A DNA stretch of 64,000 bases from Alphaproteobacteria bacterium. Its GTDB lineage: Bacteria > Pseudomonadota > Alphaproteobacteria > CAAGCB01 > CAG-977. Positions 2,973 to 57,030 of the stretch are shown here, in pieces. Each line of letters begins with the position of its first letter. The stretch's first letter is position 1. Location: contig JAFVAT010000007.1 of NCBI GenBank assembly GCA_017480385.1, positions 26,334 to 90,333 of the forward strand, in the 5' to 3' direction. The position numbers and the translations under genes are program-made. The notes beneath the pieces are model-generated. The model worked only from the letters and a program-made list of their open reading frames with translations. It had not been told where the DNA came from and ran no database searches.

Positions 2973-2984
2973 AAAAAAGACTCC

Positions 2985-7580: not shown

Positions 7581-7670
7581 AATCCTCTCTCCTTTTGATT
7601 GCGAAACCAAAGGTAACGGATAGTCTTTTGATTAGCAACAGCAAATTAAAAATGAAAACAAAGTAATGGT

Positions 7671-11079: not shown

Positions 11080-11161
11080 ATGCCGGCCTTCAATATTTTT
11101 AGTATTCAAATGATGTAAAATGGAATATCATTTTTCCAACCTTTTATATAAAGGGCGGATC

Positions 11162-13435
11162 ATGAAAAAACATATTCTTTACATACTGGCCGCTGTTGCC
11201 GCCCTTATTCTGCTGCTTCCATTTTACTATCAAAATGTTATCACGGTAATTATAAGGATATCGGCGCCTGACGGAACATATGCAGATGTTTCCTATAAAC
11301 CGGCACAAGCTTCTACATTTATTCATGCATGGAATTTTATTATTGAAAAAGAACAAACCCTTGTTGTAACGATAAATAAAAAAAGCATTTCGTCTATTAA
11401 ATTAAACATAGGACACAAAAGTTCCAAAAAAATAGAAGTCCAATATTTAAAATTTATTGGGATAAAAAAAACAACCATTACTCCCCCTTTTGATCCAAAA
11501 AATATTAACCTTGGCAAAAGGAACGATATTTTTATATTTGATGATTTTCCGCCAATTGAAGCAAAAAAAATATTCTATATTTCTTCTTTTCTTTTTTGTA
11601 CGATTGGCGTTATTCTCTTTTTCTTCGTTTTATCACAGAGCAGAAACTTTCAGCTGCTGTCAGCCGCAACAGCAGGCTATATTGGCTTTGCATTGAACAG
11701 CGATCTTAAATTTGCTCAGCTTAATCCTTTTTTGGGTATTCTTATCGTCTCTTTTCTATTTATTTTTTATCGCCGTCTGTTCTCAAAATATGAACAAACA
11801 GAACATTCTTCTCCCAAAAGCTTTTTTCCAGCTCTTTTGATTTCCGGCCTTGTTTTCGGCACGCTTAATCTTTTATCTGCGCGTTTATGCCTGTTTAATT
11901 CGTGGAAATTTGTCGTTAATTATCCTCTCCAAATGGTATTGGGCATCATCGGCCAAGCTATTTTCTTTTATGCTGTCGGAATCAGCTTTTTTAAATGGAT
12001 ATCCAACGGCAGCTTTTTTCAATCTGTCAGAACGTCCCCTATTCTTAATTCAGTCATAGACTTTTATAACCGCCGAACCGTTCTATGTTCTTTTTTGATT
12101 ATTATCCTTTTTTGGCTTCCCTATCATTTTATCTATTATCCGGGTTTTTTCCCATGGACTTCCAAAGGTCAAATAAAACAAATATGGGACTATTTGCCGA
12201 AATCTCAAAACCAACCTGTTTTATCGACACTTCTGTTCGGCCTCTTTTTCAACGCGGGAAACGAACTTAAAAACATGAATTTAGGCTTTTATTTTTATAC
12301 TGCCTTTCAGTCATGCGCCTGTGCTCTTGTTTTTGCTTTATGCATGGATCGTATTAAGCGCTTAGGTTTTAATTTTTATTATCAATCAGCATGTTTATTT
12401 TTCTTTGCTGTCTATCCGATCGGCGGATTGATTTCACTTTGGGATACAAAAGAAACGCTTTATTCCGCTGTTGTGACCTTTTTCGTCTTGCATACATTCT
12501 CTCTTGTTTATTTTCCTCAAAGATCTCTAAAAGCAAGAGTTTTTATTCTTTATGGCGTTGCTTTTCTGCTTGCTTGCCTGTTGCATCAAAGTGGCATATT
12601 CGTTACTCTTTCTACATCTCTGGCAATATTATTCCCAGCAAACATACCCTTACCTGTCAAAAAGAAAATTTTTGCTTTTTCCTTATTAAGCACCAGCCTT
12701 TTTCTGACATTGAATCAATATATTTTTCCGCTGTACGGATATGACAAAGTCTCGAAAAAAGAAGCCCTGTCCATTCCATTTCAGCAAACGGCCCGTTATT
12801 TAAAAAAATATCCCGAAGACCTTTCTGCCGAAGAAAGAAAAATCATTGAAGAGGTTTTGGATATTTCCAAAATGACAAAAAAATATTCTCCCTTTAACGC
12901 TGATTTTACAAAGAGCGCATATAAAATAAAAAATGATCCGAATGAAAACAAAAAATTGGCCGCCTATTTAAAAACAACCGTCAAAATGTTTTTCCGTCAC
13001 CCGTTAACAGCGTTACAGGCGACCATGGCGAACAGTTTTGGTTATTACGCCTTCACTCCTTATTTTATCATTGAACAAAAAGAACCTTTCGACCGTCAAT
13101 TATACACTGCATATCCCAAAAGCACACAGCCTCTCAGAGATTTTCTTGAAACATTCTATCAGGATAAAACTGTCTCCTCCCTTCTTTATACAGGACTGCG
13201 TCCTCCCGTTTATACATGGTTGCTTGTTTTACTGGGACTTTCTTTTATATCAATCAAGCGTTCCAAACATTTATTGCTGTTGGTTCCGTCCGCCATGTCT
13301 GTTTTGATTTGCATCGCCTCGCCTATAAACGGATTATTAAGATATATGCTGCCGGTAATCATGAGTATGCCGATTGTTTTTTCTTTTTGTCTCGCGGTTT
13401 ATTTTAAAGAAGAAAGGGCGACGGAAAATCAATGA
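11162..13435 (+). CDS. Polytopic membrane protein, DUF6020-like (possible GT-C fold)
   Basis: About 13 hydrophobic segments; YYPG...Q, KETLYS, KKEALSIPFQQTARY and NGLLRYMLP motifs recalled from the DUF6020 family; AT-rich. Confidence 0.65.
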   Translation: MKKHILYILAAVAALILLLPFYYQNVITVIIRISAPDGTYADVSYKPAQASTFIHAWNFIIEKEQTLVVTINKKSISSIKLNIGHKSSKKIEVQYLKFIGIKKTTITPPFDPKNINLGKRNDIFIFDDFPPIEAKKIFYISSFLFCTIGVILFFFVLSQSRNFQLLSAATAGYIGFALNSDLKFAQLNPFLGILIVSFLFIFYRRLFSKYEQTEHSSPKSFFPALLISGLVFGTLNLLSARLCLFNSWKFVVNYPLQMVLGIIGQAIFFYAVGISFFKWISNGSFFQSVRTSPILNSVIDFYNRRTVLCSFLIIILFWLPYHFIYYPGFFPWTSKGQIKQIWDYLPKSQNQPVLSTLLFGLFFNAGNELKNMNLGFYFYTAFQSCACALVFALCMDRIKRLGFNFYYQSACLFFFAVYPIGGLISLWDTKETLYSAVVTFFVLHTFSLVYFPQRSLKARVFILYGVAFLLACLLHQSGIFVTLSTSLAILFPANIPLPVKKKIFAFSLLSTSLFLTLNQYIFPLYGYDKVSKKEALSIPFQQTARYLKKYPEDLSAEERKIIEEVLDISKMTKKYSPFNADFTKSAYKIKNDPNENKKLAAYLKTTVKMFFRHPLTALQATMANSFGYYAFTPYFIIEQKEPFDRQLYTAYPKSTQPLRDFLETFYQDKTVSSLLYTGLRPPVYTWLLVLLGLSFISIKRSKHLLLLVPSAMSVLICIASPINGLLRYMLPVIMSMPIVFSFCLAVYFKEERATENQ

Positions 13436-15741
13436 AAAAGAATATTGTTTACTGCCTGATCTGCACTGTTTTGCTGATGATTTCAGCGTTTCCTCTTTAT
13501 CTCCAGCATATTATTCAGATTGAAATAACGGCTCAATCAAATAATGCTGTTTTGGTCAAATTAATAAATACCGATCAAAACATAAATATTCAGGAAAAAG
13601 TTATAAGCCCGTTTCAAAATAAAATCTATTTTAATATTCTTACAGATAATTTAAAAAACTTAAAATTATCTTTTGTACAAGAAGCAAATCCTTATCAATT
13701 TTTAACTCCACCTCGTTTTTCAAAAAGAGGTTCATTTAACCACATCAACAGCTATGCTCAAACTTTTAATTTATTTTTTCTGTTGAAGAAAAAATCAACC
13801 TTAGAAATAAGTTCTCTAAAAATTATTGGAAAGGAATCTCTGCCTTTGGAAAACAATGAAAAAATACAGCATAATTTCAAGAAAACATATGAAAATTTGA
13901 ATATACCGGCCGCGGTTCACTTTTCTTTCATCACAGCATTCATTCTTGCCCTTTCTTTTTTCACGGGATCATATCTTATTTTCCGATTCAAGACTGTTGC
14001 CGTCATCGCGGCTTCAGCAGCCGGTTATTTTTGTTTTTCTTTTTATTTTAACCATAATCTCGCGGAGCAAAGTCCTTTATTAACATGTTTTCTGATAATT
14101 TCTTTCTTCTGCCTGTATCGCCAGACATATCTTTTATCCTCTTTTCCTTTTAACCGCCCTCTTTTTATTTTCAGTATATGCTGCAGTTTACTTCATATAT
14201 CCGCTTATACAGCTGAACACACGCTTTCTTTTGATGTTTTGCCGCAAAATTATCTTATGATGATAATCGCAGCCGTTTCAGAGATCATTTTATTTTATAC
14301 TGTCTTTCTTTATGTCTTTAAATTTTTTGATTATTTAAAATTTTATCCGACACAAAAAGAAAATAATTATATAAAATTTTATAAAGAACATATTTTTATT
14401 GTTTCTTTTTGTTTTATTTTATTTATTTACCTTATTTTTGATTTAATTTATTATCCGGGTAAAATTTCTCCCAATATGGTCAATCAAATCAGACAAATGG
14501 CCCATAAATATGATCCTACTCAACATCACCCCTTTCTTTCGACTTTTATTATGTGGCTGTGCTTTAAAGTAGGTTTTGTTTTTAAAATTCAAAGTTTCGG
14601 TCTTTTCCTTTATATTTTATTGCAAAATATTGTTTGTGCCGGAGCTTTTGCCGCCAGTTTAAAAGAGTTAGATCGGTTAAAATTATCGTTCCTCTTTATT
14701 TTTGTTTCATTGTTATTTTTTTCTGTCATTCCTTTTGGTTTTTTTGCCGTTTATGGAGCAAAAGACGTCTTATACAGCGGAATTTTTGTTTTCTTTGTTT
14801 TGCAAACCATTTCTTTTCCTGCCAAAAAAACAGTGTCTGACGCCGCCTTATATATCTCAACCGCTTTATTGCTGAGCCTTCTGCGAAACAATGGTCTTTA
14901 TGTTGTTTTGCCCGCTTTTCTATTTTTATACTTTTCTTCTTCCCGAAAAAAAACAGCGATAACAGCTTTTGTCTGCACTTTTCTGCTTTTTTGGAGCTGC
15001 ACGCAAATCATTTTTCCCGCATTGGGCTTTATTCCCGGAAGCAAAAAAGAAATATTCTCTATTCCTTTTCAACAAACGGCGCTTTATGTCAAAAAACACG
15101 ATGCGCAGATAACACTGGAAGAACACCAAGCCATTGCAAATGTTTTGGAGATACAGAAATTGGCCGCTCTCTATCAAAAAGCCCTTTCTGACCCTGTCAA
15201 AGCAACATATAAGATATGGCAAGATCCGCAGGAAATCCCTTTATTAAAAAATTATCTGTTTGTTTGGGCAAAAATGTTTTTCAAACACCCGATCACATAT
15301 GTACAGGCTTTTTTAGCCCTATCAGACCAATATTATACCTTTGTCGAAAACCCGCCGAAATTTCCCGCGAAAATAACCTATAAAAAAATAATCCCCAAAG
15401 TACGGGAATTGCATGCGACTGAACCTGTAAAAAAAATAACGGACAAATTTTTTTACTCCTATTTATGGACAGTTCCCCCTTTATATCTTCTTTATTCCTG
15501 TTCTTTTTATTCAATTGCCTTTTTCTTAACCGTCATATATTTTTTCCGGCATCAAAATTGGAAAAACAGCGCTCCTTTTATTCCGGTGTTTTTCACGATT
15601 TTAATTTGCATTGCCTCACCAATGAACGGATTGCTGCGGTATGCCATGCCCCTTATGGCCGCATTTCCTTTATGCATCGGATTGGCCGCAGCTCCGGCAC
15701 TGCCTAATGTTGGAAAGGAAAAGAAAGAGGAACATGACTGA
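13432..15741 (+). CDS. Polytopic membrane protein, DUF6020-like, paralog of the upstream gene
   Basis: YYPG...QHHPFLST, KDVLYS, LRNNG, KKEIFSIPFQQTA, DPVK, NGLLRYAMP; ATGA-coupled to the previous gene. Confidence 0.7.
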   Translation: MKKNIVYCLICTVLLMISAFPLYLQHIIQIEITAQSNNAVLVKLINTDQNINIQEKVISPFQNKIYFNILTDNLKNLKLSFVQEANPYQFLTPPRFSKRGSFNHINSYAQTFNLFFLLKKKSTLEISSLKIIGKESLPLENNEKIQHNFKKTYENLNIPAAVHFSFITAFILALSFFTGSYLIFRFKTVAVIAASAAGYFCFSFYFNHNLAEQSPLLTCFLIISFFCLYRQTYLLSSFPFNRPLFIFSICCSLLHISAYTAEHTLSFDVLPQNYLMMIIAAVSEIILFYTVFLYVFKFFDYLKFYPTQKENNYIKFYKEHIFIVSFCFILFIYLIFDLIYYPGKISPNMVNQIRQMAHKYDPTQHHPFLSTFIMWLCFKVGFVFKIQSFGLFLYILLQNIVCAGAFAASLKELDRLKLSFLFIFVSLLFFSVIPFGFFAVYGAKDVLYSGIFVFFVLQTISFPAKKTVSDAALYISTALLLSLLRNNGLYVVLPAFLFLYFSSSRKKTAITAFVCTFLLFWSCTQIIFPALGFIPGSKKEIFSIPFQQTALYVKKHDAQITLEEHQAIANVLEIQKLAALYQKALSDPVKATYKIWQDPQEIPLLKNYLFVWAKMFFKHPITYVQAFLALSDQYYTFVENPPKFPAKITYKKIIPKVRELHATEPVKKITDKFFYSYLWTVPPLYLLYSCSFYSIAFFLTVIYFFRHQNWKNSAPFIPVFFTILICIASPMNGLLRYAMPLMAAFPLCIGLAAAPALPNVGKEKKEEHD

Positions 15742-16322: not shown

Positions 16323-17708
16323 ATGAACACGAAACAGCCTCGACTGGGAACGGACCCGATTTTGAAACTGTTGCTGATATTCGCTCCGCCGGCGATTATC
16401 GGACTGCTGATCAACGCGTCCTATAATTTGATAGACCGCATTTTCGTCGGCAATGGAATCGGCGCTTTGGGGCTGGCAGCGATAACGGTTTGTTTTCCCA
16501 GCATGATTTTGCAGCTGGCTCTGGGGTTAATGGTTGGTATCGGCGGCAGCGTCAATTTCGCTGTCAGCTTGGGACAGAAAAAAATTCCCCGCGCCGAAAA
16601 AATTTTTACAAACTCGGTTATGCTGATTGTTATTCTGGCACTTCTTTTTACCATCGTTCATCTGTTTTTTGCAGAACCTTTGCTGCGGCTATACGGCGCT
16701 ACGCCGACAATTATGCCGCATGCGAAAACATATTTGAGCATTATCTGTCTCGGTTCGGTTTTCATGATGACGAACATGACGCTGAATAATTTTATCCGCG
16801 CCAGCAGCTTTCCCCGCTTTGCCATGTGCACAATGCTGATCGGAGCAATTGCAAACACGATTTTAGACGCTTTATTTATTTTCGTCTTTAAATGGGGCAT
16901 TGTCGGCGCTGCTGCCGCTACCGTCATTGCTCAGGCGGTTTCCTTTTTATGGGCCTCTTCCTTTTTCATTTCTTCCCGAGCCATTTATCGTTTCCGAAAA
17001 AAATACATAAAACTATCGCCGAAAATCGTTTCAGCGATCTGTTTTGTTGGCGCCGCGCCGTTTTTAATTCAAATCACCAACGGATTTATGCAGACGCTGA
17101 TCAACAAATCTTTGATTCAATACGGCGGAGATATTGCCGTTTCCGCTATGGGAGCGACTTTAGCCGTCACGATTTTACTGTTTATGCCCATCACCGGCTT
17201 GTGTGAAGGCATGCAGCCGGTAATTGGATTTAACCTCGGCGCGGAAAAGTACGACAGAATGTTAAAGATTTTTCGGTTAAACCTGATCGCTTCGACTGTT
17301 TTTTTCATTTTTGGTTGGGGAGTTCTTCAGCTTTTTCCCGAAACGATCATTCGTGTATTCAACAATCGGGATCAAGAATTGATTACAATAGGGACTCAAT
17401 CGTTAAAAACAATCAGTCTGCTTTATCCTTTTATCGGCCTGCCGATCGCGACGACTTTTTTTCTGCAGGCTGTCAAACATCCGTCTATGGCCGCTTTTTT
17501 AGCGGTCGGTCGCCAGCTGCTGTTTATTATTCCGTCTTTGCTGATCCTGCCGCGCTATTTCGGTCTGAACGGCGTGTTTTATGCTTTTCCGACGGCCGAT
17601 CTTTTAGGTTTTTTTGTCGCCGTGCCGATTACAGTTCAGCAGTTTAGAAAATATGGCAAAAAACAACGGGAATCTGAGACTACTTCTGTTCTTCCTGAAG
17701 CGGCTTAG
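16323..17708 (+). CDS. MATE family efflux transporter (MepA-like)
   Basis: 12 TM; YNLIDRIFVG, N.ILD.LFIFVFKWG..GAA.ATVIAQ, QPVIGFNLGA. Confidence 0.93.
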   Translation: MNTKQPRLGTDPILKLLLIFAPPAIIGLLINASYNLIDRIFVGNGIGALGLAAITVCFPSMILQLALGLMVGIGGSVNFAVSLGQKKIPRAEKIFTNSVMLIVILALLFTIVHLFFAEPLLRLYGATPTIMPHAKTYLSIICLGSVFMMTNMTLNNFIRASSFPRFAMCTMLIGAIANTILDALFIFVFKWGIVGAAAATVIAQAVSFLWASSFFISSRAIYRFRKKYIKLSPKIVSAICFVGAAPFLIQITNGFMQTLINKSLIQYGGDIAVSAMGATLAVTILLFMPITGLCEGMQPVIGFNLGAEKYDRMLKIFRLNLIASTVFFIFGWGVLQLFPETIIRVFNNRDQELITIGTQSLKTISLLYPFIGLPIATTFFLQAVKHPSMAAFLAVGRQLLFIIPSLLILPRYFGLNGVFYAFPTADLLGFFVAVPITVQQFRKYGKKQRESETTSVLPEAA

Positions 17709-19182
17709 TTTCTTGAACTGTTATTCCCATGGCCTTAAGAAGCTTACCGAACAAGGCCGTTTGCGGATAGTTTCCCATAAAGAAAAACGCGCCGTTTCCG
17801 ATAGCCGAAACAGGAACGGGAACTCCCGTTTGCCCGAAAGTGGAATACCCCAATCCGGCCCGACGCGCTAAAATCTGAGCCGGCGCAATCTGCAAAGGAT
17901 CATATTTGTCGTATTTATTCACATACGCCTCTGTTTTAGGTCTTTTGGCCGGCTCCATCATGCTGTAGCGAAATGCCTCGCGCAGACCGGAAAGTTCCGC
18001 CGCACTCAAATTCATCTCCAAAGCCTTTTTAGCTTCTTCATCACCGGCCTTCGCTTTTGCATTCAATTCCTTTTTTTGTTCTTTAGACAGTATGCGCAAA
18101 CCGAAATTTTTTTCAATTTGAGGCATAAAATCTTCTAAAACCGCTCCGGCCTGCCGACGCTGACGAAAACGGCTGATCACCGGTTTAAAGGCATCGGCGG
18201 AAATATTTTGATTTTTTAAAATATCGGCCTTTAAATCTCCGGAATTATCAACCCCCAGGGTCAGCCCTCCCGTTTCAACCGTTCCAGTCACAATGATCAA
18301 TGTTTCCTGATCGTGCGTATGATAAAAATCCCATGCGGCCTGAACGGCTTGGTCAAACGCGTTAATTTCCTTGATCAGAGCCGCCGTATCGTGCATTCCA
18401 GCGGCCTGATTCATTTTGCTGCCGATCGTGATCAGGACAAAGCCCTTCTCGCCTTGAAATTTATCTATTGCTTTTTGAACAAACATAGCCAAAGAGGGCG
18501 CTTCCGGCTTCGCATCAATTGCAAAGGGGATATTCTTCAAGGACGCGATCACCTTACCGGAGGGCAAAACTTCGTCTTTCTGCAAAGAAAACAGCTGTTT
18601 ATACCCTCCGTTTTTCAAAACGACGCCCAAATCTTCTTTTTGAAACGATTTTTGACGTTTGAAAGCCTGCCCGATCATCAAAGAAATGCCGCTGTCCTTT
18701 GTCTGAACGGCAATATCGTAATAATTCTGCTTTTTAGCGGAATGCGCATAAAAAGAAGCCGGCACGGCTCCGTCCAAAAAAGAATCCGCAATAATGCCGA
18801 CAGCATACCCTTTTTCCGCAACAACAGAAGTTATCAAGGGCAGCGCCGGCTCATTTTCCGACAGCATAGAGATCATGCCCTCCGCCCCAAGTTGTCCGGT
18901 TGCCAATGCTCCGGCAGAAGAAGCCGTATCAGCCAAATTAGACTTTGCCGATGCTGCCGTGGCCACGCCCTGCACCGGCAGCGTATTAACAAACAAATGC
19001 TTTCCTTCTGCCAATTCGGTCAATCGTCTTTGCGCATAAGAAGCACCGTCGCCGATAAATAAAAAAACATATTTCGCAAGTTTTTCTTCCTGACATGCGT
19101 TAAGGAGACAGCACATCAGACAAAAACCGCCCAACAGCAAGCGGTGTTTGGCTTTTTTAATAGAAAATAAGAAAGGAAACAT
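17680..19182 (-). CDS. Alkaline-phosphatase-family lipoprotein with degenerate active site
   Basis: KYVFLFIGDG, ALATG, PASFYAH, ETGGLTLG and TGVPVPV identify the AP fold; lipobox LNAC; most metal ligands substituted. Confidence 0.85.
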   Translation of the reverse strand: MFPFLFSIKKAKHRLLLGGFCLMCCLLNACQEEKLAKYVFLFIGDGASYAQRRLTELAEGKHLFVNTLPVQGVATAASAKSNLADTASSAGALATGQLGAEGMISMLSENEPALPLITSVVAEKGYAVGIIADSFLDGAVPASFYAHSAKKQNYYDIAVQTKDSGISLMIGQAFKRQKSFQKEDLGVVLKNGGYKQLFSLQKDEVLPSGKVIASLKNIPFAIDAKPEAPSLAMFVQKAIDKFQGEKGFVLITIGSKMNQAAGMHDTAALIKEINAFDQAVQAAWDFYHTHDQETLIIVTGTVETGGLTLGVDNSGDLKADILKNQNISADAFKPVISRFRQRRQAGAVLEDFMPQIEKNFGLRILSKEQKKELNAKAKAGDEEAKKALEMNLSAAELSGLREAFRYSMMEPAKRPKTEAYVNKYDKYDPLQIAPAQILARRAGLGYSTFGQTGVPVPVSAIGNGAFFFMGNYPQTALFGKLLKAMGITVQETKPLQEEQK

Positions 19183-19300
19183 AGTTGACTCTTTAAGGCT
19201 TCTGTAAGATAAAATTAACTTTGAGCGTATTAAAAAAACTTATGCACACAATGTCAAATAAAAAGAATCTCTTTTTGTTTTTCTAACGGAATAATGGAAA

Positions 19301-20671
19301 ATGAAAACTCATTTGCTGATCCCTTCGCTTTTATTCGGCCTGCTTGCGCTGCCGGCACATGCGGATCCGTTTGATATTGAAGGCGAAGTAACACCTGTGC
19401 CGAAAGCTCCGGTTTGCTCAACGAATGCAACGAAAGAAAAGCTGCATTTGGCAGACGTCATCAATCTGGCTTTATGCCAAAACCCGCAGACACAAAAGCT
19501 TTATATGGGGGCGTTGGCAACGGCTGCCGAATACGGCCAAACGAAATCGGATTACTTACCGACACTGGACTTCAATGCCGGCATCAATCAATCGGACACA
19601 ACCATTCATCACGGTCGAAATTCTAATTCAACAATGGCATCGGCAGGCCTTTCTTTAAACTGGCTGCTGTTTGATTTTGGCGGTCGGGAGGCGTCAACCA
19701 AAATTGTCCGGCAATCCTTGAATGCAGCTTTAGCCACTCGTTCGGATACCCTGCAAAGCTTGATTTTTGAAGCTGCCGAAGCCTATTATCAGGTTTTTGC
19801 GGCGCAGGAGGAATACAACAATTCCAATGCGACACTGGCCGCCGCTTTGTCGGCTTTTGAAGCGGCTGCCAAACGATATGAATTGGGACTGGCGGCATTA
19901 TCCGATAAACTGCAAGCGGAAACGTCTTATTCCGAAGCTCAGCTCTCCGTCACCAAAGCGGAAGAATCTTTAGCTTTAGCCAAAGGCCGCTTAGCCGTTT
20001 TATTGAATTTTTCTCCGGATCAGTCCTTGGACCTGTACGAAGAAAAATATTCCATGGACAACCTCATGGTTCCGGACAACATCACAAACCTGCTTAAAAC
20101 AGCATTGAATAACCGGTCCGACATACAAGCCAAAAAGGCCGCCGTAAAACAGGCCGAATCAACGCTTGACATGCAAAAGGCTCAAAACGCGCCGAGCTTC
20201 AACTTGTCTGCCGGTTTAAACGGTCAGGACGAACTGACCAAAAATGGTCCCAGATCTCATACCAGCTCTGTCGGATTGACAATGACAGTCCCTTTGTTTA
20301 CGGGCTTCAAAAATTCTTACAGAACCTCTCAGGCCCGTTATCAATTGGAACAAAGCAAAGCCGAACTTAAACAGCTGGAAAACAATATTCAGCAAGAAGT
20401 ATGGACAACTTATCAGAATTTTATCACAGCCAAAAAAACGTATGAAATTTCTTTAACGATGTTTGCTTCCGCCGATCAAAACGCCAAAGTCGCTTTAGGC
20501 GCTTATAAAGCCGGCAAAGGAAGTATTTTAAATGTTTTGGACGCTCAATCGAAACTGGCAGATGTGCGGACGACCAAAAGTCAATCTTTTTATGATTTAC
20601 TGATCGCAAAAACAAATATGATCCGGAAAATCGGATTGATTGATCCCTTTAAAACGAACAAAGGATTTTAA
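19301..20671 (+). CDS. TolC family outer membrane protein
   Basis: Signal peptide; LNWLLFDFG, RYELGLAA..D.LQA, YKAGKGSILNVLDAQ. Confidence 0.92.
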   Translation: MKTHLLIPSLLFGLLALPAHADPFDIEGEVTPVPKAPVCSTNATKEKLHLADVINLALCQNPQTQKLYMGALATAAEYGQTKSDYLPTLDFNAGINQSDTTIHHGRNSNSTMASAGLSLNWLLFDFGGREASTKIVRQSLNAALATRSDTLQSLIFEAAEAYYQVFAAQEEYNNSNATLAAALSAFEAAAKRYELGLAALSDKLQAETSYSEAQLSVTKAEESLALAKGRLAVLLNFSPDQSLDLYEEKYSMDNLMVPDNITNLLKTALNNRSDIQAKKAAVKQAESTLDMQKAQNAPSFNLSAGLNGQDELTKNGPRSHTSSVGLTMTVPLFTGFKNSYRTSQARYQLEQSKAELKQLENNIQQEVWTTYQNFITAKKTYEISLTMFASADQNAKVALGAYKAGKGSILNVLDAQSKLADVRTTKSQSFYDLLIAKTNMIRKIGLIDPFKTNKGF

Positions 20672-20674
20672 CCC

Positions 20675-21832
20675 ATGAAAAAAACGCTTGTTATTCTTAT
20701 CATTTTAGGACTGGCCTGCGGCGGTATCCTGTATTACAGACATTACGGCAAAAAATCCGAAATCGTTTATGATACAACGACGCCCGTCCGAGGCAGTTTG
20801 CGCGTTGATGTCACAGCTTCCGGCACGATTCAGCCCGTTAATATCGTCAGCGTCGGCACTCAGGTTTCAGGCATTATCGAAAAAGTTTTTGTGGATTACA
20901 ATTCCACGGTAAAAAAAGGCGACTTAATAGCCCAGCTGGAAACCTTTACTCTGGAAGAGGACCTGAAAGAGGCTAAAGCCGCCGTGACGGACGCCAAAGC
21001 AAAACTTGATTATGCGAAACTGAACGCCAAACGAAACAAAGAGCTGTTTGAACAAAACTTTATTGCCCGTTATGAATGGGAAGAAGCAGAGCTCAGCGCC
21101 GTCAACGCTCAGGCCACTTATGACAAAGCCATAGCGCAGCAGAAAAAAGCCAAACGCAACTTAGGTTATGCCAACATCGTTTCTCCGGTTAACGGCATTA
21201 TTGTTACCAAAGAAGTCGAAGAAGGTCAAACCGTTGCTTCCAGCTTCCAAACGCCGGAACTGTTCACTATTGCGGAAGATCTGACCAAAATGCAGATTGA
21301 AGCATCGATTTCCGAGGCTGATATCGGTCAAATCAAGACCGGTCTGCCGGTTACTTTTACGGTGGACACTTTTCCGGCCGATACCTTCAATGGAATTGTA
21401 GACCAAGTTCGTTTGCAGCCGACGGAAGATTCCAACGTTGTCATGTATACCGTTGTCATTGCGATCTCAAACGACGATCTGCGTCTGCTGCCGGGCATGA
21501 CGGCTTACGTTACGATCACGGTGGAAGAAAAACATGACATATTGAAGCTGCAAAACATGGCTTTCCAATTCCGTCCCGTAACGGGAGGCACTGTTTCCGC
21601 TAAAAAATCCAATGTGGAACGCCAGCGCATCATTCAGGAACGCAAATCCTTACAGCCGAATGAAGCAATGATTTATGTGCTTGAAGGCAACACGCCCGTA
21701 GCGCGCAAAGTTAAGAAAGGCATTTCCAATTTGCTGGAAACAGAAATAACAGAGGGCCTTTCGGCAAACGAAAAAGTTGTTTTAGAAGATTTAACAACAA
21801 AAGTCAGCGTTAAGCGCGGAGGACCTCCATGA
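20675..21832 (+). CDS. MacA-like efflux periplasmic adaptor
   Basis: VSVGTQVSG, ISPVNG.V....VEEGQTVASSFQTP, SEADIG, LLPGMTA. Confidence 0.92.
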   Translation: MKKTLVILIILGLACGGILYYRHYGKKSEIVYDTTTPVRGSLRVDVTASGTIQPVNIVSVGTQVSGIIEKVFVDYNSTVKKGDLIAQLETFTLEEDLKEAKAAVTDAKAKLDYAKLNAKRNKELFEQNFIARYEWEEAELSAVNAQATYDKAIAQQKKAKRNLGYANIVSPVNGIIVTKEVEEGQTVASSFQTPELFTIAEDLTKMQIEASISEADIGQIKTGLPVTFTVDTFPADTFNGIVDQVRLQPTEDSNVVMYTVVIAISNDDLRLLPGMTAYVTITVEEKHDILKLQNMAFQFRPVTGGTVSAKKSNVERQRIIQERKSLQPNEAMIYVLEGNTPVARKVKKGISNLLETEITEGLSANEKVVLEDLTTKVSVKRGGPP

Positions 21833-22548
21833 CCAAAAAAGTCATTGAAATCAAAGACGTCTGCAAAACCTATTTCATGGGCGGCGGCATGAAGCAGGAT
21901 GTGCTGAAACACATCAACATGACCGTGGAAGAAGGGGAGTTTGTCGCCATTATGGGCCCCTCCGGCGCGGGCAAATCCACCTTTATGAATGTGCTCGGCT
22001 GCCTGGACCGACCGACTTCCGGCCAATATATTCTGGGCGGAAAAGAAGTCTCCTCCATGAATGACAATGAGCAGGCCCATATCCGCAACCGCATGATCGG
22101 CTTCGTCTTTCAGGGCTTTAACCTGTTAATGCGGCGAACGTTGACGGACAATGTTTCTTTGCCGCTGATTTATGCCAATGATACGACCAAAGAAGAACGG
22201 ATCAAACGAGCCGTTGAAAAATTGGAACTCGTGGGGCTGAAGGGATTTACGGACCGTTATCCCAACCAAATTTCCGGCGGCATGCAGCAGCGCGTCGCTA
22301 TAGCCCGCGCGCTGATCAATGCGCCTGAAATGATTCTGGCCGACGAACCGACCGGAAACTTGGACAGCAAAACCAGTGATGAAATCATGCTTTTCCTGCA
22401 AAAATTAAACGCGGAACAGGGCATAACCATCGTTTTAGTCACGCATGAACCTGACATCGCGCTGTATGCCCGTCGCTTAGTGCGCATTGTGGACGGAACG
22501 ATCGCTTATGACGGCGCAGTTAAAGATTACAAGGAGCAGGCCAAATGA
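21829..22548 (+). CDS. MacB-type ABC ATP-binding subunit
   Basis: GPSGAGKST, ISGGMQQRVAIARAL, LADEPTGNLD, VTHEP. Confidence 0.95.
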   Translation: MTKKVIEIKDVCKTYFMGGGMKQDVLKHINMTVEEGEFVAIMGPSGAGKSTFMNVLGCLDRPTSGQYILGGKEVSSMNDNEQAHIRNRMIGFVFQGFNLLMRRTLTDNVSLPLIYANDTTKEERIKRAVEKLELVGLKGFTDRYPNQISGGMQQRVAIARALINAPEMILADEPTGNLDSKTSDEIMLFLQKLNAEQGITIVLVTHEPDIALYARRLVRIVDGTIAYDGAVKDYKEQAK

Positions 22549-23759
22549 TAAAATCCGTTTTTTATGAAGCCTGCCTGTCCATGACAGGAAACAAGCTCAG
22601 ATCGTTTTTAACCACGCTCGGCATTATCATCGGCGTATGCGCGGTTGTCATGATGGTCGCCGCCGGACAAACAGTTCAGAACATCATTCAGGAACGCTTT
22701 GTTGCAATGGGATCAAACCTGCTGATTATCCGATCCGAACGGCCCAAAGCAACCGTTAAAACATCAGGGCCGACAACGTCGATTACATTGGACGACGCAA
22801 ACGCATTAAAGACACTGCGCGGATTGGACGTGGTTGCTCCGGTGTTAAGCGCGTCAGCCCAAGCGATTAACGGAGCCAACAACTGGAGCGTTTCCATCAC
22901 CGGAACAACGCCGGATTACATGAAAACCGCCAACTGGGAAATCGCCAAAGGCCGCGGACTTGACGAACAGGACATACGCCGGGGCACAACGAATGTTGTG
23001 ATCGGACACGAAGTGATGACAGAACTTTATCCGTACGAAGACCCGATCGGCAAAACGATCCGCATCGGCAACCAACCGTTTAACATTGTCGGCGTTTTAA
23101 AAGAAAAAGGATCCAGCACGGGCGGCGCCAATCAGGACTCGGCGGTCATGATGCCTTTGCTGACGGTACAGCGGCGATTTAATCGTTACGCGAAATTAAA
23201 CGCACTGAATTTTATTGCCGTCAAATTTGCGGAAAGCGAAGATTTGAACATTGTCGAACAGCGCATTACCCGCTTTTTGCGCGGTCGCCATAAAATTAAG
23301 GACGAAGATCCTGATGACTTCCGTATTTTCAATATTGCCGAATTTGTTGAAAATATCCGCCTGATCGGAACGGTTCTGTCTATTTTATTAATGGCGATTG
23401 CCTCCATTTCCCTGATTGTCGGCGCGATCGGCATCGTCAATATGATGTTGGTATCCGTTACGGAACGAACGCGGGAAATCGGCATACGCAAAGCCTTGGG
23501 CGCTCCCAACAATTGGATTATGCTGCAATTTTTATTTGAAGCCGTCCTTATTTCCATGATCGGCGGCGTCATCGGCCTTATTTTGGGAATTGGCCTTTCT
23601 CAGCTGGGCGGATATTTTTATAAAGTCTCCGTCCCCTTCAGTCTGTGGCCGGTCGTTCTTTCCTTTACCGTTGCTCTGGTTGTCGGCGTTATTTCCGGCG
23701 TTTTCCCAGCATACAAAGCAATGAAACTGGACCCGATTGAAGCTTTGCGATATCAATAA
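22545..23759 (+). CDS. MacB-type ABC permease
   Basis: LRSFLTTLGIIIG, VSVTERTREIGIRKALGA, DPIEALRYQ. Confidence 0.95.
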   Translation: MIKSVFYEACLSMTGNKLRSFLTTLGIIIGVCAVVMMVAAGQTVQNIIQERFVAMGSNLLIIRSERPKATVKTSGPTTSITLDDANALKTLRGLDVVAPVLSASAQAINGANNWSVSITGTTPDYMKTANWEIAKGRGLDEQDIRRGTTNVVIGHEVMTELYPYEDPIGKTIRIGNQPFNIVGVLKEKGSSTGGANQDSAVMMPLLTVQRRFNRYAKLNALNFIAVKFAESEDLNIVEQRITRFLRGRHKIKDEDPDDFRIFNIAEFVENIRLIGTVLSILLMAIASISLIVGAIGIVNMMLVSVTERTREIGIRKALGAPNNWIMLQFLFEAVLISMIGGVIGLILGIGLSQLGGYFYKVSVPFSLWPVVLSFTVALVVGVISGVFPAYKAMKLDPIEALRYQ

Positions 23760-23803: not shown

Positions 23804-24349
23804 TCACGAGTTTGAAGCGGCTGAAGTTTTCTTTTTTATTTCTAAATACTCGGCAACCCCTAACCCTCCATATAAAACCAGATAAAATCCTAACAACGTG
23901 GAAACGGTAAAAATTCCTAACAAAGGCGATCCTAAAATCCACAAACCGAATAAAATGCCTAAGAGGCCGGAAATTAAAAGCCATTTCCAAGTGGGATTTC
24001 CTGTCGCTTTGGAATCAAGTCCAACAGAAACCTGAAGCACGGCAATGCACAAAATCCAAATTGCTAATAAAAACGGTAGAGATTCGGCTGCTATGCCCAA
24101 ATTTAAAATCAAAACCCCTCCAAGAATAAAATCCAATAGCCCCATTGCCAATAACCACCCCGAGCGTAGCGAATAAAAATCCATTAAATAACCACAGCCG
24201 CTGATGATAAACATCACTCCCAGATAAAGCGCCGCAGCTAACAATGCCGAATCCGGAAAAATCCACGCCAAAATACCGGCAATAATCATAAAAACACTGG
24301 AAAGAAGCAAACCTTTCCTGACTTTTAAATCCTTTTTCGTTTCAGTCAT
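23804..24349 (-). CDS. HdeD/DUF308 family membrane protein
   Basis: Six hydrophobic helices with G.L.II.G...P..A patterns; AGGAG RBS upstream. Confidence 0.8.
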   Translation of the reverse strand: MTETKKDLKVRKGLLLSSVFMIIAGILAWIFPDSALLAAALYLGVMFIISGCGYLMDFYSLRSGWLLAMGLLDFILGGVLILNLGIAAESLPFLLAIWILCIAVLQVSVGLDSKATGNPTWKWLLISGLLGILFGLWILGSPLLGIFTVSTLLGFYLVLYGGLGVAEYLEIKKKTSAASNS

Positions 24350-24428
24350 CATATACTCCTTTGTTTTTTTCAACATAGCAAAAAACAAAGGAAAGGCTTA
24401 TCATCTTTAAGTTTATAACTCTTTGGTT

Positions 24429-25052
24429 TTATTTATCTTTCTTCTCTCTTTGCGTTAATTCGAAATTAGCGATCTTGATCGTTTCATAATAGGGCAGCAG
24501 AACTAAAAGAATTGAAATCAAAAGCAAATAAAGCCTTTGCCCGCTTAATTCGACAACATCAAACACGTCCAAAACGAAAAAGATCAGGATAAAAATATTC
24601 AAACCGATTGTTGCAAATTTTAAATTTCCGACAGCTGTTTTTTTCCGACTGTCCAATAAAGTTTCTTTTGCATTTTTTCCCTTCTGCACTAAGTTTTTAT
24701 AATCAAAGACAGAATTTCGGACCAACTGATTTTTTCGCACATCTATTGCTTCAAAAAAGGGTTCCGTTTCTTTGGGAAAAACCAAGTAACCGACAATATC
24801 CGGATTGACTTTTTCCGCTTCAGCCGTATAGCGTCGGAGCTGCTGTTTCCCGGCTTCTTCCGTCTGAGGCGTTCTTTTTGTTTTCAGTTCGAAAATCTGC
24901 AACGGCGTATTGGTATTTGGATCGACTATTGTTAAATCGGGGCGATATTTTCCTATTTTGTAATCGACTAAAATACTTTCCTCCGGATATCCCTTTTTCA
25001 TCAGGAAATCTTGTACGCTTTCCATCAAATCCCGTTGATTTTCCTCTGTCAT
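24429..25052 (-). CDS. PD-(D/E)xK nuclease domain (HsdR N-terminal-like) with two C-terminal TM helices
   Basis: GYP..I..EY-type segment, RPDLTI (PD), IFELK (ExK), QQLRRY (QxxxY); hydrophobic helices at about aa 147-190. Confidence 0.7.
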   Translation of the reverse strand: MTEENQRDLMESVQDFLMKKGYPEESILVDYKIGKYRPDLTIVDPNTNTPLQIFELKTKRTPQTEEAGKQQLRRYTAEAEKVNPDIVGYLVFPKETEPFFEAIDVRKNQLVRNSVFDYKNLVQKGKNAKETLLDSRKKTAVGNLKFATIGLNIFILIFFVLDVFDVVELSGQRLYLLLISILLVLLPYYETIKIANFELTQREKKDK

Positions 25053-25196
25053 TTCTTGTCCCGGCTTTATTGCATCATATTATTAATCTAAAAATTCCAA
25101 AGCCGGAAACAAGACGTTCATAGACTTATTTTCTAAATAAAACCTCTCTTCCCTTTTCAAAAGGATTACCCCTTGCCGTTTGGTTAAAATTATTTT

Positions 25197-25556
25197 TTAA
25201 ATAAACAAATATTCGCTGATATTGCTTTTTTCGGTATGGATATTGTTGCGAAAATGCGGATAGGGAATATCATAGAAATCAACAGATCCGAAAGCGCTCG
25301 CTTTTTCAAGAATGTTTTCTTTTTTCAACAGTCCTTCGGAATTATAGCTTAACACAAGCGTTGAACATTGAGCTTGAGAAAAAATTATTTCCAACCCTCT
25401 TTCGGCTTTTTCCTTATTGCAAAAATCGGATTTCTGATCGGAATATTCCCTCATTCCGGTAACGCCTCGCAAGAACGGATTGTCATATTTTGCTATCGTT
25501 TCCAGTATATGATAATTTGGCGCGTATTGCCGTCCATTATATGGTGGATCAATATA
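25197..25556 (-). pseudogene. C-terminal fragment of an N6-adenine DNA methyltransferase (D12 class, NlaIII/FokI-like)
   Basis: Manual translation YIDPPYNGRQYAPNYHILETIAKYDNP...LSYNSEGLL...EYLF. DPPY motif present; N-terminal SAM-binding part absent. Confidence 0.85.
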
Positions 25557-25880
25557 ACTGATTCTGTATATATTCTGCTATTTTATAAGCGTTCTTATCC
25601 GTGGTATCGACATAGTATCCCTTGCATCAAAATTCTTTGTTGAGATATTTGAACTTTATGTTCTTCCACCGCTCATAAACCATCAAACTGCTTTTTTTCT
25701 TTCAAAAATCACATAAATCCCGCCACACTTATTTTCGGTGGTATTTCGATCAACATATGTACGTGATGTTTACAATTCCATGTCGAAAGTGATAATGTCT
25801 TTATATCATTCGTTGTTAACTCCTTAGTCTCTGTTGCAGTTGCCGGATTGCATTCTGAATTTACCTAAGGAGTTTTTTTG
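25555..25880 (-). mobile_element. IS200/IS605 family tnpA relic
   Basis: Translates to NDIKTLSLSTWNCKHH/VHMLIEIPPKISVAGFM*FLK/SSLMVYERW..KFKY.NKEF*CKGYYVDT..KN...IAEYIQNQ. ACG in place of the start codon, internal deletion, two stops and a frameshift. 5' hairpin AACTCCTTAG/CTAAGGAGTT (25818-25827/25865-25874). Confidence 0.88.
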
Positions 25881-26053
25881 TGTAGAATTATAAGCTTTTC
25901 TGAACAATGTGCCCGGTGCGCAGTTTCCGGAGTATAAAAAAGCCCCGTTTTGAATTGTCCCTTGAAAATTGGACAGTAAAAAAAGTCCCGAAGATTGCGA
26001 TAGCAATTTTCGGGATAATTTTTTAACTTTAAGCCAAAAGGAAAGGATAATTC

Positions 26054-26440
26054 GTGAAGCATCACATTTTTACCAAAGAAGAACGAGAAGGATTGGAGAA
26101 TAATCCGAACATTTCCAAAGTTCTCAACAGCAATGTGGAATATACGGAGGAGTTCAAGCAAAAAGTATTGTCTGAACATAAAGAATTAGGAAAGACAGCA
26201 AAGCAAATATTTTCAGAAGCGGGAATACCTAATTGGTTTAATTGCGGCAAATACGCAAGTAAGTGTTTGGATAGATGGAAATATCAACAGCGGCACCGTA
26301 AAATAAAGAAAAGAGATCTCTCCAAGGTTGAGGAAAACAAACTTTTGCAAGAGATGAGCAAGCAAGAGCTAATAAAAGAAATACAATTATTAAGATTGGA
26401 GAATGAATTCTTAAAAAAACTCGAACCCTTGGAACAATAA
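26054..26440 (+). CDS. IS3 transposase OrfA
   Basis: HTH-type OrfA ending LRLENEFLKKL, with A7 slippery site TTAAAAAAAC near 26411. Confidence 0.85.
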   Translation: MKHHIFTKEEREGLENNPNISKVLNSNVEYTEEFKQKVLSEHKELGKTAKQIFSEAGIPNWFNCGKYASKCLDRWKYQQRHRKIKKRDLSKVEENKLLQEMSKQELIKEIQLLRLENEFLKKLEPLEQ

Positions 26441-27301: not shown

Positions 27302-27378
27302 TGAACTGCCACGAGACTTTTTTTACTGTCCATTTTTCAGGGGACTGTTCATTTCGGGGCTTTTTTATCGTTTGCCGA

Positions 27379-27879: not shown

Positions 27880-28086
27880 TTCGCATATCCTGTGTGTCAA
27901 ACGTTCACGTCCGGTCATATAACACAACTTCCGCCTTTCTGCTTAAAATTATGCCTTTATGCCAGACGCCAAAAAAGGAAGCCGCTTGCTGCATTTTAAC
28001 ACTCAACACAGTCCTAACTTCAGCCCCCTGTAAGAGATTAATGTATCATAAAATACGGATCAGGGGTAGCATTTAGTTATAAAAAT

Positions 28087-57015: not shown

Positions 57016-57030
57016 TTCTTTTCTCCTTTA

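Follow-up and report, generated by a model that had tools for sequence, protein, structure and literature searches.

A lineage-specific alkaline phosphatase homologue of uncultured gut Alphaproteobacteria, stripped of its catalytic residues and probably retained for a role independent of catalysis

Results

An alkaline-phosphatase-like gene between a MATE pump and a divergent exporter

The window, by which we mean the whole stretch of 64,000 nucleotides that was analysed, contains an unbroken ORF of 500 aa that starts with ATG and encodes the protein P0001. A MATE efflux gene converges on it from one side and an exporter operon diverges from it on the other. The operon was identified with Pfam and NCBIfam and its context by position. 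The features are as follows:

16323..17708 (+), MATE efflux gene, convergent; its 3' end overlaps the alkaline-phosphatase-like ORF by 29 nt
17680..19182 (-), degenerate alkaline-phosphatase homologue CDS (P0001), from the ORF, PF00245 and AlphaFold/Foldseek
19093..19182 (-), predicted signal peptide and lipobox (MFPFLFSIKKAKHRLLLGGFCLMCCLLNA, followed by C30), from translation and conservation
19183..19300 (.), divergent intergenic region of 118 bp, common to the alkaline-phosphatase-like gene and the exporter operon
19189..19194 (-), Shine-Dalgarno-like AAAGAG, 6 nt 5' of the ATG
19229..19257 (-), putative sigma-70-like promoter of the alkaline-phosphatase-like gene: -35 TTGACA (19252-19257), 17-nt spacer, -10 TTTAAT (19229-19234)
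19301..23759 (+), exporter operon
19301-20671 (+), OEP/TolC-family gene
20675-21832 (+), membrane-fusion protein (MFP) gene
21829-22548 (+), ABC ATPase gene
22545-23759 (+), MacB_PCD+FtsX permease gene

P0001 matches the Pfam family PF00245 (Alk_phosphatase) with 103.6 bits (E 1.5e-29; gathering score 24.4) and falls below the cut-off of the NCBIfam PhoA equivalog NF007810 (49.2 bits against 540). Its top PDB sequence match is the cold-active alkaline phosphatase (AP) of Shewanella, 3a52 (9.6e-29). The AlphaFold model has a pLDDT of 95.5, which in part reflects an input alignment dominated by active homologues, and a pTM of 0.92; when it was searched with Foldseek, the top 50 PDB matches were all alkaline phosphatases, sharing the AP alpha/beta core. 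By sequence and model, P0001 is a PF00245 homologue with a confidently predicted AP fold. Three gut-metagenome DNA runs contain 100% of the locus words sampled, showing that the sequence exists; none of the RNA runs searched holds the locus.

The N-terminus reads KKAKHR, LLLGGFCLMCCLL and LNA before the cysteine, and a helix is predicted at residues 4-28 in the AlphaFold model. C30 is invariant in 20/20 members of the clade described below and L27 is at least 90% conserved; Asn at lipobox position -2 is atypical and lies outside the classical lipobox pattern. P0001 is probably a Sec-exported, lipid-anchored envelope protein, and the intact ORF and the LNAC sequence that the original prediction took for a lipobox were confirmed. 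Upstream, a T-rich tract precedes the promoter, which our consensus scan missed because it demands A as the second base of the -10 hexamer. The pattern TTTGACA-N17-T(T/C)TAAT nevertheless stands upstream of 12/12 orthologues compared, catalytically live and dead alike, including the exporter-less locus L092. The Shine-Dalgarno-like element is conserved as AAAGAGTCAA(C/T) in dead loci and is found in three of the four live loci compared, as AAGAAGATACAAC (L082, L084) or GAAAAAAATTACAATC (L085); the upstream window of L004 is not comparable, coming from a tblastn match that begins inside the ORF. We searched the intergenic region between the divergent genes for a Pho box or a common regulatory motif; no Pho box was recognisable by eye, and the conserved sigma-70-like promoter was the only regulatory element seen.

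Loss of catalytic and metal-binding residues

APs are among the best-understood metalloenzymes and their catalytic residues are essentially invariant. We compared P0001 with E. coli PhoA (from NC_000913), numbering the mature protein as the precursor number minus 22. Ten of the 11 catalytic positions are substituted in P0001, with D51 alone retained (as D45). The other columns mapped align S102 with T86, D153 with G138, T155 with V140, R166 with K151, E322 with I253, D327 with N258, K328 with Q259, H331 with G262, D369 with T301, H370 with V302 and H412 with Q451. The codons concerned include:

17830..17832 (-), Q451, in place of Zn1 ligand H412; the column is Q/R/S/P in the dead clade
18277..18282 (-), T301-V302, in place of Zn2 ligands D369-H370, by alignment
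18397..18426 (-), I253...N258...G262, in place of E322 (Mg) and of D327 and H331 (Zn1)
18925..18927 (-), T86, in place of the Ser102 nucleophile; the column is T/S/N/A/gap in the dead clade

Thus all three Zn1 ligands (D327, H331, H412) are lost, as are two of three at Zn2 (D369 and H370, with D51 kept) and two of three at the Mg site (T155 and E322, D51 again remaining), while the nucleophilic Ser of the D-S-A motif has become Thr (DTA). This is not alignment noise, because the ligands all stand in these columns in 100/100 outgroup sequences and in three close orthologues. Every substitution listed in the original prediction, together with the retention of D51, proved correct on alignment, except that in the change of HATP to GAVP the first motif is the AP-subfamily consensus and not that of E. 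coli, which has D153 in 'DATP'. The replacement of the phosphate-binding Arg166 by Lys was absent from that list and is added here; in this column 15/17 dead members have K, and every live or outgroup sequence has R.

On this evidence P0001 would be expected neither to bind metal nor to hydrolyse phosphoesters, and, from the established AP mechanism, binding of phosphate or a phosphoester at the old site is unlikely because the metal ligands are lost and R166 has become Lys. The earlier suggestion that it binds a phosphorylated substrate fares badly for the same reasons. Judged from sequence alone, P0001 may still have some weak or novel activity.

A degenerate clade nested among intact enzymes

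The degenerate state is common to 17 clusters (at 90% identity), which have intact ORFs of 486-539 aa and diverge to about 52% identity. Among 266 family members scored, only these 17 clusters and one fragment are degenerate. An NJ tree recovers the 17 dead members as monophyletic with a bootstrap of 58, rising to 94 without P0014, and nests them in a grade of live lipoprotein orthologues, the node joining them to their sister P0013 having a bootstrap of 99. The intact close orthologues P0013, P0018 and P0020 are 48-57% identical to P0001, and L004 is intact also. All 17 dead members share D369->T, and a single inactivation of an intact lipoprotein AP at the same locus forms part of the explanation that we favour below. 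Since the NJ support for all 17 is only 58%, catalysis may have been lost a second time in the basal member P0014.

D45 is retained in 16/17 dead members and Thr replaces Ser in 10/17, and in P0016 and P0017 the nucleophile motif is deleted. T301 is the sole former ligand position fixed across all 17. The former ligand columns have entropies of 1.1-2.0 bits, those other than the nucleophile column holding three to five different and mostly non-coordinating residues (G/S/E/D/A, I/V/A/S/N, G/E/Q/K and Q/R/S/P). To look for a substitute catalytic constellation we listed the residues that had become fixed among the dead members, and just T301 and Q152 were found; with the ligand columns drifting, a replacement catalytic site was rejected.

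A profile built from dead members only was searched against 1.84 billion representatives, and the best 150 matches held no further dead lineage beyond a fragment of the clade. In the same matches P0121 is changed at S102A only and P0129 at H331Q, the H412 column being ignored here, since it falls in the insert state of the dead-only-profile hmmalign alignment, and its status taken from MAFFT alignments. P0121, with the nucleophile alone changed, may be an intermediate.

Purifying selection with relaxation around the old site

Most pairwise dS values are saturated (>1.5 or undefined), so that dN/dS was read for the closest pairs only. NG86 estimates were 0.086 for L089/L090 (CI 0.06-0.12), 0.30 for L091/L092 (CI 0.22-0.39), 0.11 for the window gene and L002, and 0.16 for L002/L003. 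Usable dead/dead values come from these four pairs, which are not phylogenetically independent; they span 0.09-0.30 with bootstrap upper bounds no higher than 0.39, and ML estimates agree. Neighbouring genes in the same pairs give 0.01-0.13. The dN of the AP relative to that of OEP, MFP and MATE together is 1.38 in dead/dead and 1.91 in live/live pairs, and therefore there is no overall relaxation.

Relaxation in the dead clade is localised around the old catalytic site. Of 116 ancestrally conserved positions 41 are lost, and for 29 of the 41 a catalytic residue is no more than 5 residues away on either side (Fisher p=2e-4). Live pairs have a near/far dN ratio of 0.46 and dead pairs one of 0.73, and in just one 30-residue window, residues 241-270, does variability in the dead clade exceed that in the outgroup (1.05 vs 0.64 bits). 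Elsewhere, purifying selection of roughly the strength seen in the neighbouring genes keeps the AP core, the long helical insert, the signal peptide and the promoter.

P0001 is thus, as far as its sequence can tell us, a pseudoenzyme maintained by selection. The original prediction, which had called for the same substitutions to recur with dN/dS below 1 and had read the gene as maintained and not decaying, is borne out by these ratios, by the 17 intact clusters and by the conserved promoter, Shine-Dalgarno-like element and lipobox Cys. It had also named close homologues with intact ligands and neutral decay as weighing against it; the former exist (P0013, P0018, P0020, L004), the latter is not seen.

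The neighbouring exporter and MATE pump

The 118-bp divergent region was correctly described beforehand; in the operon, described there as TolC-MacA-MacB, MacB is split, with ATPase and permease as two genes. Across the clade the divergent arrangement has an intergenic region of 60-130 bp, and the exporter is syntenic in every locus with readable upstream sequence save L092 and L098. Of the neighbours the MATE gene is kept most consistently: no clade locus with downstream sequence lacks it. Outer flanks vary by lineage (IMS, CreD, DUF308 or rplY on one side; SMR-BPL_N, DUF6020 or MFS-PfkB on the other). Among outgroup AP loci, 0/77 have an OEP or a MacB-type permease at a distance of 10 kb or less, so the exporter linkage is clade-specific, and a functional tie between P0001 and the exporter is possible for that reason.

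The dead AP might then be a dedicated accessory or cargo of the adjoining TolC-MFP-MacB-type exporter or of the MATE pump, either as a lipoprotein that the pump handles or as its periplasmic adaptor. In favour of this are the arrangement kept while outer flanks differ, its absence from outgroup loci, the convergent MATE gene throughout, and a precedent in Aat, a MacB/TolC-like system that traffics a lipoprotein (PMC7943197). However, the divergent exporter also flanks catalytically intact orthologues (L082-L086, L004, L094). Linkage must predate the loss of catalysis, because live and dead orthologues are flanked alike, and it does not explain the loss, because the closest same-locus relatives are still intact enzymes. 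Moreover, the P0019 lineage (L092 and L098, from two samples) has a dead AP with no adjoining exporter, the AP ORF being unbroken and both the promoter and the MATE gene retained. The AP of this lineage shows no acceleration over that of the exporter-bearing sister L091: dN to three reference genomes, P0019 lineage against L091, is 0.406/0.414, 0.408/0.377 and 0.474/0.475. Inherited gene order alone could hold the six-gene block together, because the genomes are fairly close (exporter permease 82-91% identical). An AatD-like acyltransferase is absent.

We regard a dedicated accessory or cargo role as unlikely, though likelier than the other alternatives to the reading favoured below. The recurrence of tolC-macAB synteny that the original prediction sought was found in most clade loci, but around live and dead APs alike and not in L092 or L098, and its proposal of a binder, sensor or accessory for the exporter does not follow from a linkage shared with live enzymes and missing from the P0019 lineage. 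The locus hints only faintly at a link of P0001 to TolC-MacAB, and it is only their position that makes the exporter and the MATE pump candidate partners.

Discussion

We think it quite probable that P0001 belongs to a lineage-specific pseudo-AP that arose by one inactivation of an intact ancestor and was kept for a catalysis-independent role in the envelope. The ancestor would have been a catalytically intact lipoprotein alkaline phosphatase at the same locus, in uncultured gut Alphaproteobacteria; catalysis would have become dispensable and then been lost, in one event, in one sub-lineage. The catalysis-independent role was probably present already in the intact ancestors, and would most likely consist in protein or ligand binding or envelope scaffolding through clade-specific conserved basic segments. 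These largely basic segments, at residues ~150-180 (FKRxKSF) and ~331-360 (KxxINRFRxRR...EDFMPQIEKNFGL), are common to live and dead members and hypervariable in other APs; windows 331-360 and 151-180 are the most conserved in dead members. Clade-specific conserved basic residues are K150, R176, K333, R338, R342, R343, R405 and K423, and the net charge of proteins in the window's sub-clade runs from +7 to +19, compared with a mean of -8 in the outgroup. Going by conservation alone, these segments of the insert domain would be the best candidate binding surface. There is a slim chance that the AP scaffold has been exapted more specifically, as a non-catalytic envelope component working with the exporter and/or MATE pump; the protein would then act through the basic insert-domain surface, for instance as a cargo lipoprotein exported to the cell surface or as an adaptor in the periplasm.

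Thr nucleophiles are found elsewhere in the AP superfamily (NPP, PafA), and P0001 might still be an enzyme, using Thr86 or other residues in a metal-independent or differently liganded new activity. The retention of D45, the fixation of T301, the frequency of Thr for Ser and a shell round the old site that is still somewhat constrained, with its near/far ratio of 0.73, would all suit such an enzyme. A conserved catalytic site would not show nucleophile and ligand columns drifting among three to five residues, nor deletion of the nucleophile motif in P0016 and P0017, and we consider this improbable. APs are obligate dimers, and pairing with an active paralogue is a common theme among pseudoenzymes. 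P0001 could accordingly be pictured as a non-catalytic subunit that modulates the activity or localisation of an active AP, and its insert/crown region, which in large APs makes up a large part of the dimer interface, is highly conserved. No second AP homologue was found in the 64-kb window, and a species-representative scan, a weak test that depends on peptide patterns, returned one locus each from the MAGs carrying L002 and L003, leaving this reading very doubtful. That P0001 is an ordinary pseudogene in slow decay, its frame open by chance, would fit the loss of catalytic residues but is scarcely credible and was rejected, since the dN/dS confidence intervals exclude 1, 17 clusters with saturated synonymous sites have unbroken ORFs, and promoter, RBS and signal peptide are conserved.

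If P0001 is indeed a maintained pseudo-AP, its clade offers a clean natural experiment in the repurposing of an enzyme scaffold, for which live same-locus sisters (48-57% identity) are usable as controls, and the finding of a binding partner would reveal a catalysis-independent function possibly already present in active enzymes. Intact relatives are named 'alkaline phosphatase' in source annotations and degenerate members carry the same Pfam domain, and because of this shared domain the phosphate-scavenging capacity of these bacteria could be overstated in metabolic reconstructions. Our search of the literature for bacterial PF00245 pseudoenzymes found nothing relevant, and for this gut alphaproteobacterial lineage only microbiome surveys; were the exaptation reading true, P0001 would be the first pseudoenzyme of PF00245 to act in transport or surface biology.

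Comparison with known systems

Aat and Cex are composite secretion systems in which a MacB-like ABC protein and a TolC-like duct export an acylated lipoprotein. Their cargo is small and glycine-acylated, and they have a dedicated N-acyltransferase. They resemble the P0001 locus in that a lipoprotein gene adjoins export genes of TolC-like and MacB-like type (PMC7943197, PMC13622617); they differ in that the P0001 locus has no such acyltransferase or cargo, and one dead lineage has no exporter. Like the MacAB-TolC pump (reviewed in PMC5985334), the neighbouring exporter combines OEP, MFP, ABC ATPase and MacB_PCD+FtsX in one operon. Its ATPase and permease are separate genes, however, and its scores fall far below the NCBIfam equivalog cut-offs (MacA 141.8 vs 342; MacB 239.6 and 223.1 vs 966).

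YejM/PbgA (LapC) has an AP-superfamily periplasmic domain in which the LtaS/EptA metal ligands are not conserved, and plays a regulatory role in the envelope (PMC12444477), although Mg-dependent phosphatase activity has been reported (PMC7576196). It belongs to an LtaS/EptA-like family and not to PF00245, is fused to a polytopic membrane domain and is essential in E. coli, so that the likeness of P0001 is one of analogy and not of family membership.

In fold, P0001 resembles the characterised bacterial APs of Shewanella (3a52), Halobacterium (2x98), Halomonas (3wbh), Vibrio (3e2d/7qow), TAB5 (2iuc) and E. coli (PhoA, 1alk), with Foldseek E values of 4e-29 to 1e-19 and target-normalised TM up to 0.87-0.89. 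All of them are metalloenzymes that carry two Zn ions and one Mg ion, at sites whose ligands, apart from D51, are lost in P0001. PDB titles record E. coli single-site mutants S102T (2g9y), D153G (1aja), T155V (3bdg), E322Y (3dyc), H331Q (1hjk), D369N (1alh) and H412Q (1hqa), and P0001 combines changes at all seven positions. The wider long-insert PF00245 subfamily (Desulfovibrio, Dethiosulfovibrio, Anaerolineae and others) is ~33-36% identical. Closest are the intact APs of the clade itself (P0013, P0018, P0020, and L004 from 'Acetobacter sp. CAG:977'), which share with P0001 the locus order (divergent exporter, AP, convergent MATE), the promoter, the LNxC lipobox, the N-terminus, the length and the insert domain, and which keep D51, S102, D153, T155, R166, E322, D327, H331, D369, H370 and H412 where P0001 keeps only D51.

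An alkaline phosphatase homologue stripped of most catalytic residues

17680–19182, minus strand: alkaline phosphatase (AP)-like ORF, intact, 500 codons

By homology the protein encoded here belongs to the alkaline phosphatase family (Pfam PF00245; 103.6 bits, gathering score 24.4), yet, judged from its sequence, each of the catalytic features that define the enzyme is missing or incomplete, and it scores 49 bits where the NCBI PhoA equivalog model requires 540. The closest solved structure is the cold-active AP of Shewanella (3a52, 9.6e-29). An AlphaFold model has a pLDDT of 95.5 and a pTM of 0.92, values to be read with the caveat that the input alignment of 120 sequences consisted mostly of active homologues. 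All 50 of the top 50 Foldseek matches of this model in the PDB are alkaline phosphatases, including 3a52 (E 4e-29, target-normalised TM 0.87). On the family score, the structural match, the model and the Foldseek result, the claims of AP homology and a predicted AP fold are sound. An antisense ORF of 249 aa inside the gene (18313–19062, plus strand) is very probably spurious, because the AP frame has strong homology and is under purifying selection.

Catalytic columns were read from an alignment of this protein and 30 homologues to E. coli phoA (from NC_000913).

Catalytic residues of E. coli PhoA and the corresponding residues of the window protein
PhoA	Window protein
D51	D45 (kept)
S102	T86
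D153	G138
T155	V140
R166	K151
E322	I253
D327	N258
K328	Q259
H331	G262
D369	T301
H370	V302
H412	Q451

Given the established AP mechanism, these substitutions imply that the Zn1 site has none of its three ligands left, that the Zn2 and Mg sites keep one of three each, and that the nucleophile and the arginine that binds phosphate are gone. The list of PhoA substitutions in the original prediction proved right column by column; R166K had been overlooked, and the 'HATP' motif quoted there is the subfamily consensus but not the E. coli sequence, which reads DATP.

A probable single origin of the degenerate state

A search of 5.8 billion proteins recovered a tight group of 20 clusters, 47–100% identical to the window protein, below which identity falls to about 36% across roughly 600 proteins whose source names, where given, are 'alkaline phosphatase'. 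Where a source is named, the relatives come from uncultured Alphaproteobacteria of the gut ('Rhodospirillaceae bacterium UMGS1296', 'Alphaproteobacteria bacterium' and 'Acetobacter sp. CAG:977'). Every ligand is present in the alignment columns of all outgroup sequences, and all are kept in three of the 20 clusters, P0013 (57% identical to the window protein), P0018 (52%) and P0020 (48%), which share their N-terminus and LNxC lipobox with the dead members; the degenerate state is found in the remaining 17. In a bootstrapped, outgroup-rooted neighbour-joining (NJ) tree these 17 dead proteins form one clade (support 58 for all 17, and 94 minus the basal P0014), nested within a grade of live proteins and joined to P0013 at a node with 99% support; D369→T is common to 17/17. 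From monophyly within a live grade and this shared substitution we conclude that the sequences record one inactivation event followed by diversification, and the loss of catalytic residues appears both single and recent.

When a dead-member profile was compared with 1.84 billion representatives, the best 150 matches included no further degenerate lineage except P0128, a fragment of the dead clade, P0129, with H331Q, and P0121 (L094:6001–7566), in which only the nucleophile is altered (S102A, IPDAASATSAF) and all metal ligands are retained. P0121 is related to the live L004/P0020 group, with 70% identity to the AP of L004; it is known from one contig only and has the same gene order around the AP as its relatives. 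The S102A allele may mark a separate path to inactivation that began with the nucleophile, or it may be a sequencing error.

Purifying selection and local relaxation

Codon alignments were made from 12 loci; dS was saturated in most pairs, and omega is given for the closest dead/dead pairs.

Omega (NG86) of AP-like genes in the closest dead/dead pairs of loci (WIN, the window's locus)
Pair	Omega	Bootstrap 95% CI
L089/L090	0.086	0.06–0.12
WIN/L002	0.11	0.07–0.15
L002/L003	0.16	0.12–0.22
L091/L092	0.30	0.22–0.39

Pairwise maximum-likelihood estimates are consistent with these values, and five neighbouring genes in the same genome pairs have omega of 0.01–0.13. Relative to three of its neighbours combined (OEP, MFP and MATE, described below), AP dN is 1.38-fold in dead/dead pairs versus 1.91-fold in live/live pairs; scaled in this way, then, the dead AP evolves no faster than the live enzyme. 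With omega of 0.086–0.30, confidence limits reaching at most 0.39 and no acceleration over the live enzyme once scaled to the neighbours, the substitution patterns give good support to a gene that is maintained and not decaying, as originally predicted for this pseudoenzyme.

Relaxation in the dead clade is confined locally. In the outgroup 116 positions are at least 90% conserved; the dead clade has lost 41 of these, and 29 of the 41 fall no more than ±5 residues from a catalytic one (Fisher OR 4.8, p = 2e-4). Entropy at the former ligand columns is 1.1–2.0 bits in the dead clade (exceptions: D45, K151 and T301), residues 241–270 are the sole 30-residue window more variable there than in the outgroup, and dN in the catalytic shell is 0.46 times that of the rest of the protein in live pairs but 0.73 times in dead pairs. 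A rebuilt active site is disfavoured, because T301 and Q152 alone are newly fixed.

Expression signals and genomic neighbourhood

19252–19257, minus strand: −35 element of the AP-like gene
19229–19234, minus strand: −10 element of the AP-like gene
19189–19194, minus strand: Shine-Dalgarno-like sequence of the AP-like gene

All orthologues compared, live or dead, are preceded by the same upstream element, made up of a T-rich tract, a TTGACA hexamer, a 17-nt spacer and TTTAAT or CTAAT; wherever the sequence read included the true start, a Shine-Dalgarno-like AAAGAG or AAGAAG follows. No Pho box was seen in these upstream regions. No RNA-seq runs containing the locus were found; all its sampled words are present in three gut-metagenome DNA runs.

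At most loci of the clade the AP gene is divergent from an exporter operon encoding a MacB-type permease, ABC ATPase, MFP and TolC-family OEP, and convergent with a MATE efflux gene. This block recurs at dead loci (WIN, L002, L003, L087/88, L089, L090, L091, L095–97, L099 and L101; the short contig of L102, also dead, shows the OEP-AP junction alone), and at live loci (L004, L082/83, L084, L085/86 and L094, the last being the locus of the S102A member), with outer flanks that vary from lineage to lineage. The original prediction read the protein as an accessory to the exporter or its phosphorylated substrate. A dedicated exporter role would agree with the specificity of the linkage, since 0/77 AP loci from other phyla have an OEP or MacB-type permease within 10 kb. 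However, the linkage is shared equally by active enzymes and, as far as gene order indicates, is clade-specific but older than inactivation. Moreover, in the lineage of the dead protein P0019, represented by two independent samples (L092:3000–5468 and L098:1–5533), the TolC-MFP-ABC-permease operon is absent beside the dead AP. Here the AP gene follows rplY (ribosomal protein L25) at a distance of 336 bp, and the ORF is retained together with its promoter and the MATE gene convergent to it. In the sister lineage L091 the operon sits between rplY and the AP gene. Measured against three references, AP dN in the P0019 lineage does not consistently exceed that in L091 (0.406 vs 0.414, 0.408 vs 0.377 and 0.474 vs 0.475), and the sole universal neighbour of clade AP genes is MATE. 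The comparative data thus lend the accessory reading no support, and we regard a dedicated exporter role as possible but improbable.

The AP-like ORF and the MATE gene overlap at their 3′ ends by 29 nt (17680–17708). Such overlaps measure 14–113 nt in L089–L092, whereas in L087, in L093 (the basal dead member) and at the live loci the two genes are separated by 7–71 nt. The C-terminal tails of dead proteins are of low confidence or disordered (pLDDT 64).

Other features of the window

219–1091, plus strand: LysR-family regulator, upstream of the following cluster
1650–7610, minus strand: second efflux-type cluster (OEP, two ABC-2 permeases, ABC ATPase and HlyD-family adaptor)
11120–15741: pair of tandem DUF6020 paralogues, both large polytopic membrane proteins (771 and 769 aa)
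24000–28000: low-GC stretch (37–38%) with an ORF lacking a Pfam match (24429–25052) and an integrase-core (rve) fragment (26637–27191)
53419–60420: two subtilase (Peptidase_S8) autotransporters in tandem (1198 and 1129 aa), carrying PATR repeats and C-terminal beta-domains

The DUF6020 pair lies in a stretch of 35–36% GC against about 46–48% around it; relatives carry at least four copies (L089 and L090), one (L087) or none (L091 and L092), and live-AP loci have SMR and BPL_N in their place. Low GC, the rve fragment and the unmatched ORF suggest an insertion-sequence remnant or small island at 24000–28000, just beyond the exporter operon and a DUF308 gene.

A catalysis-independent role and comparison with known systems

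Selection maintains the dead AP, which has a probable lipoprotein signal and an AP fold; its metal site is gone and its pocket drifts. Phosphoester hydrolysis and phosphate binding at the old site would both have been lost, and the protein is probably retained for a catalysis-independent role, likely to have been present already in its intact ancestors because the loss was followed by almost no new fixations. On the basis of conservation, the best candidate for a functional surface is a set of 34 residues conserved across the live and dead clade and rare in the outgroup (including K150, R176, K333, R338, R342, R343, R405 and K423). Such residues are concentrated at 151–180 and 331–360, the most conserved windows of the dead clade (0.71 and 0.61 bits), although other APs vary strongly there (1.51 and 2.32 bits). 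Proteins of the window's sub-clade carry a net charge of +7 to +19, where the outgroup mean is −8; this strongly basic character would fit, speculatively, a role in binding either a partner protein or some anionic ligand of the envelope or the host.

The Aat and Cex systems are precedents for the handling of lipoproteins by MacB/TolC-like machines (PMC7943197), but the acyltransferase that is their hallmark is absent at the window's AP-exporter locus. No description of a bacterial PF00245 pseudoenzyme was found in the literature searched. The nearest functional analogy is YejM/PbgA, whose AP-superfamily periplasmic domain lacks the metal ligands found in related enzymes and is retained for a part in envelope regulation (PMC12444477), although it differs in family and architecture. 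Pseudoenzymes as such are a known phenomenon; the dead AP adds a neat, well-controlled case within a textbook enzyme family.
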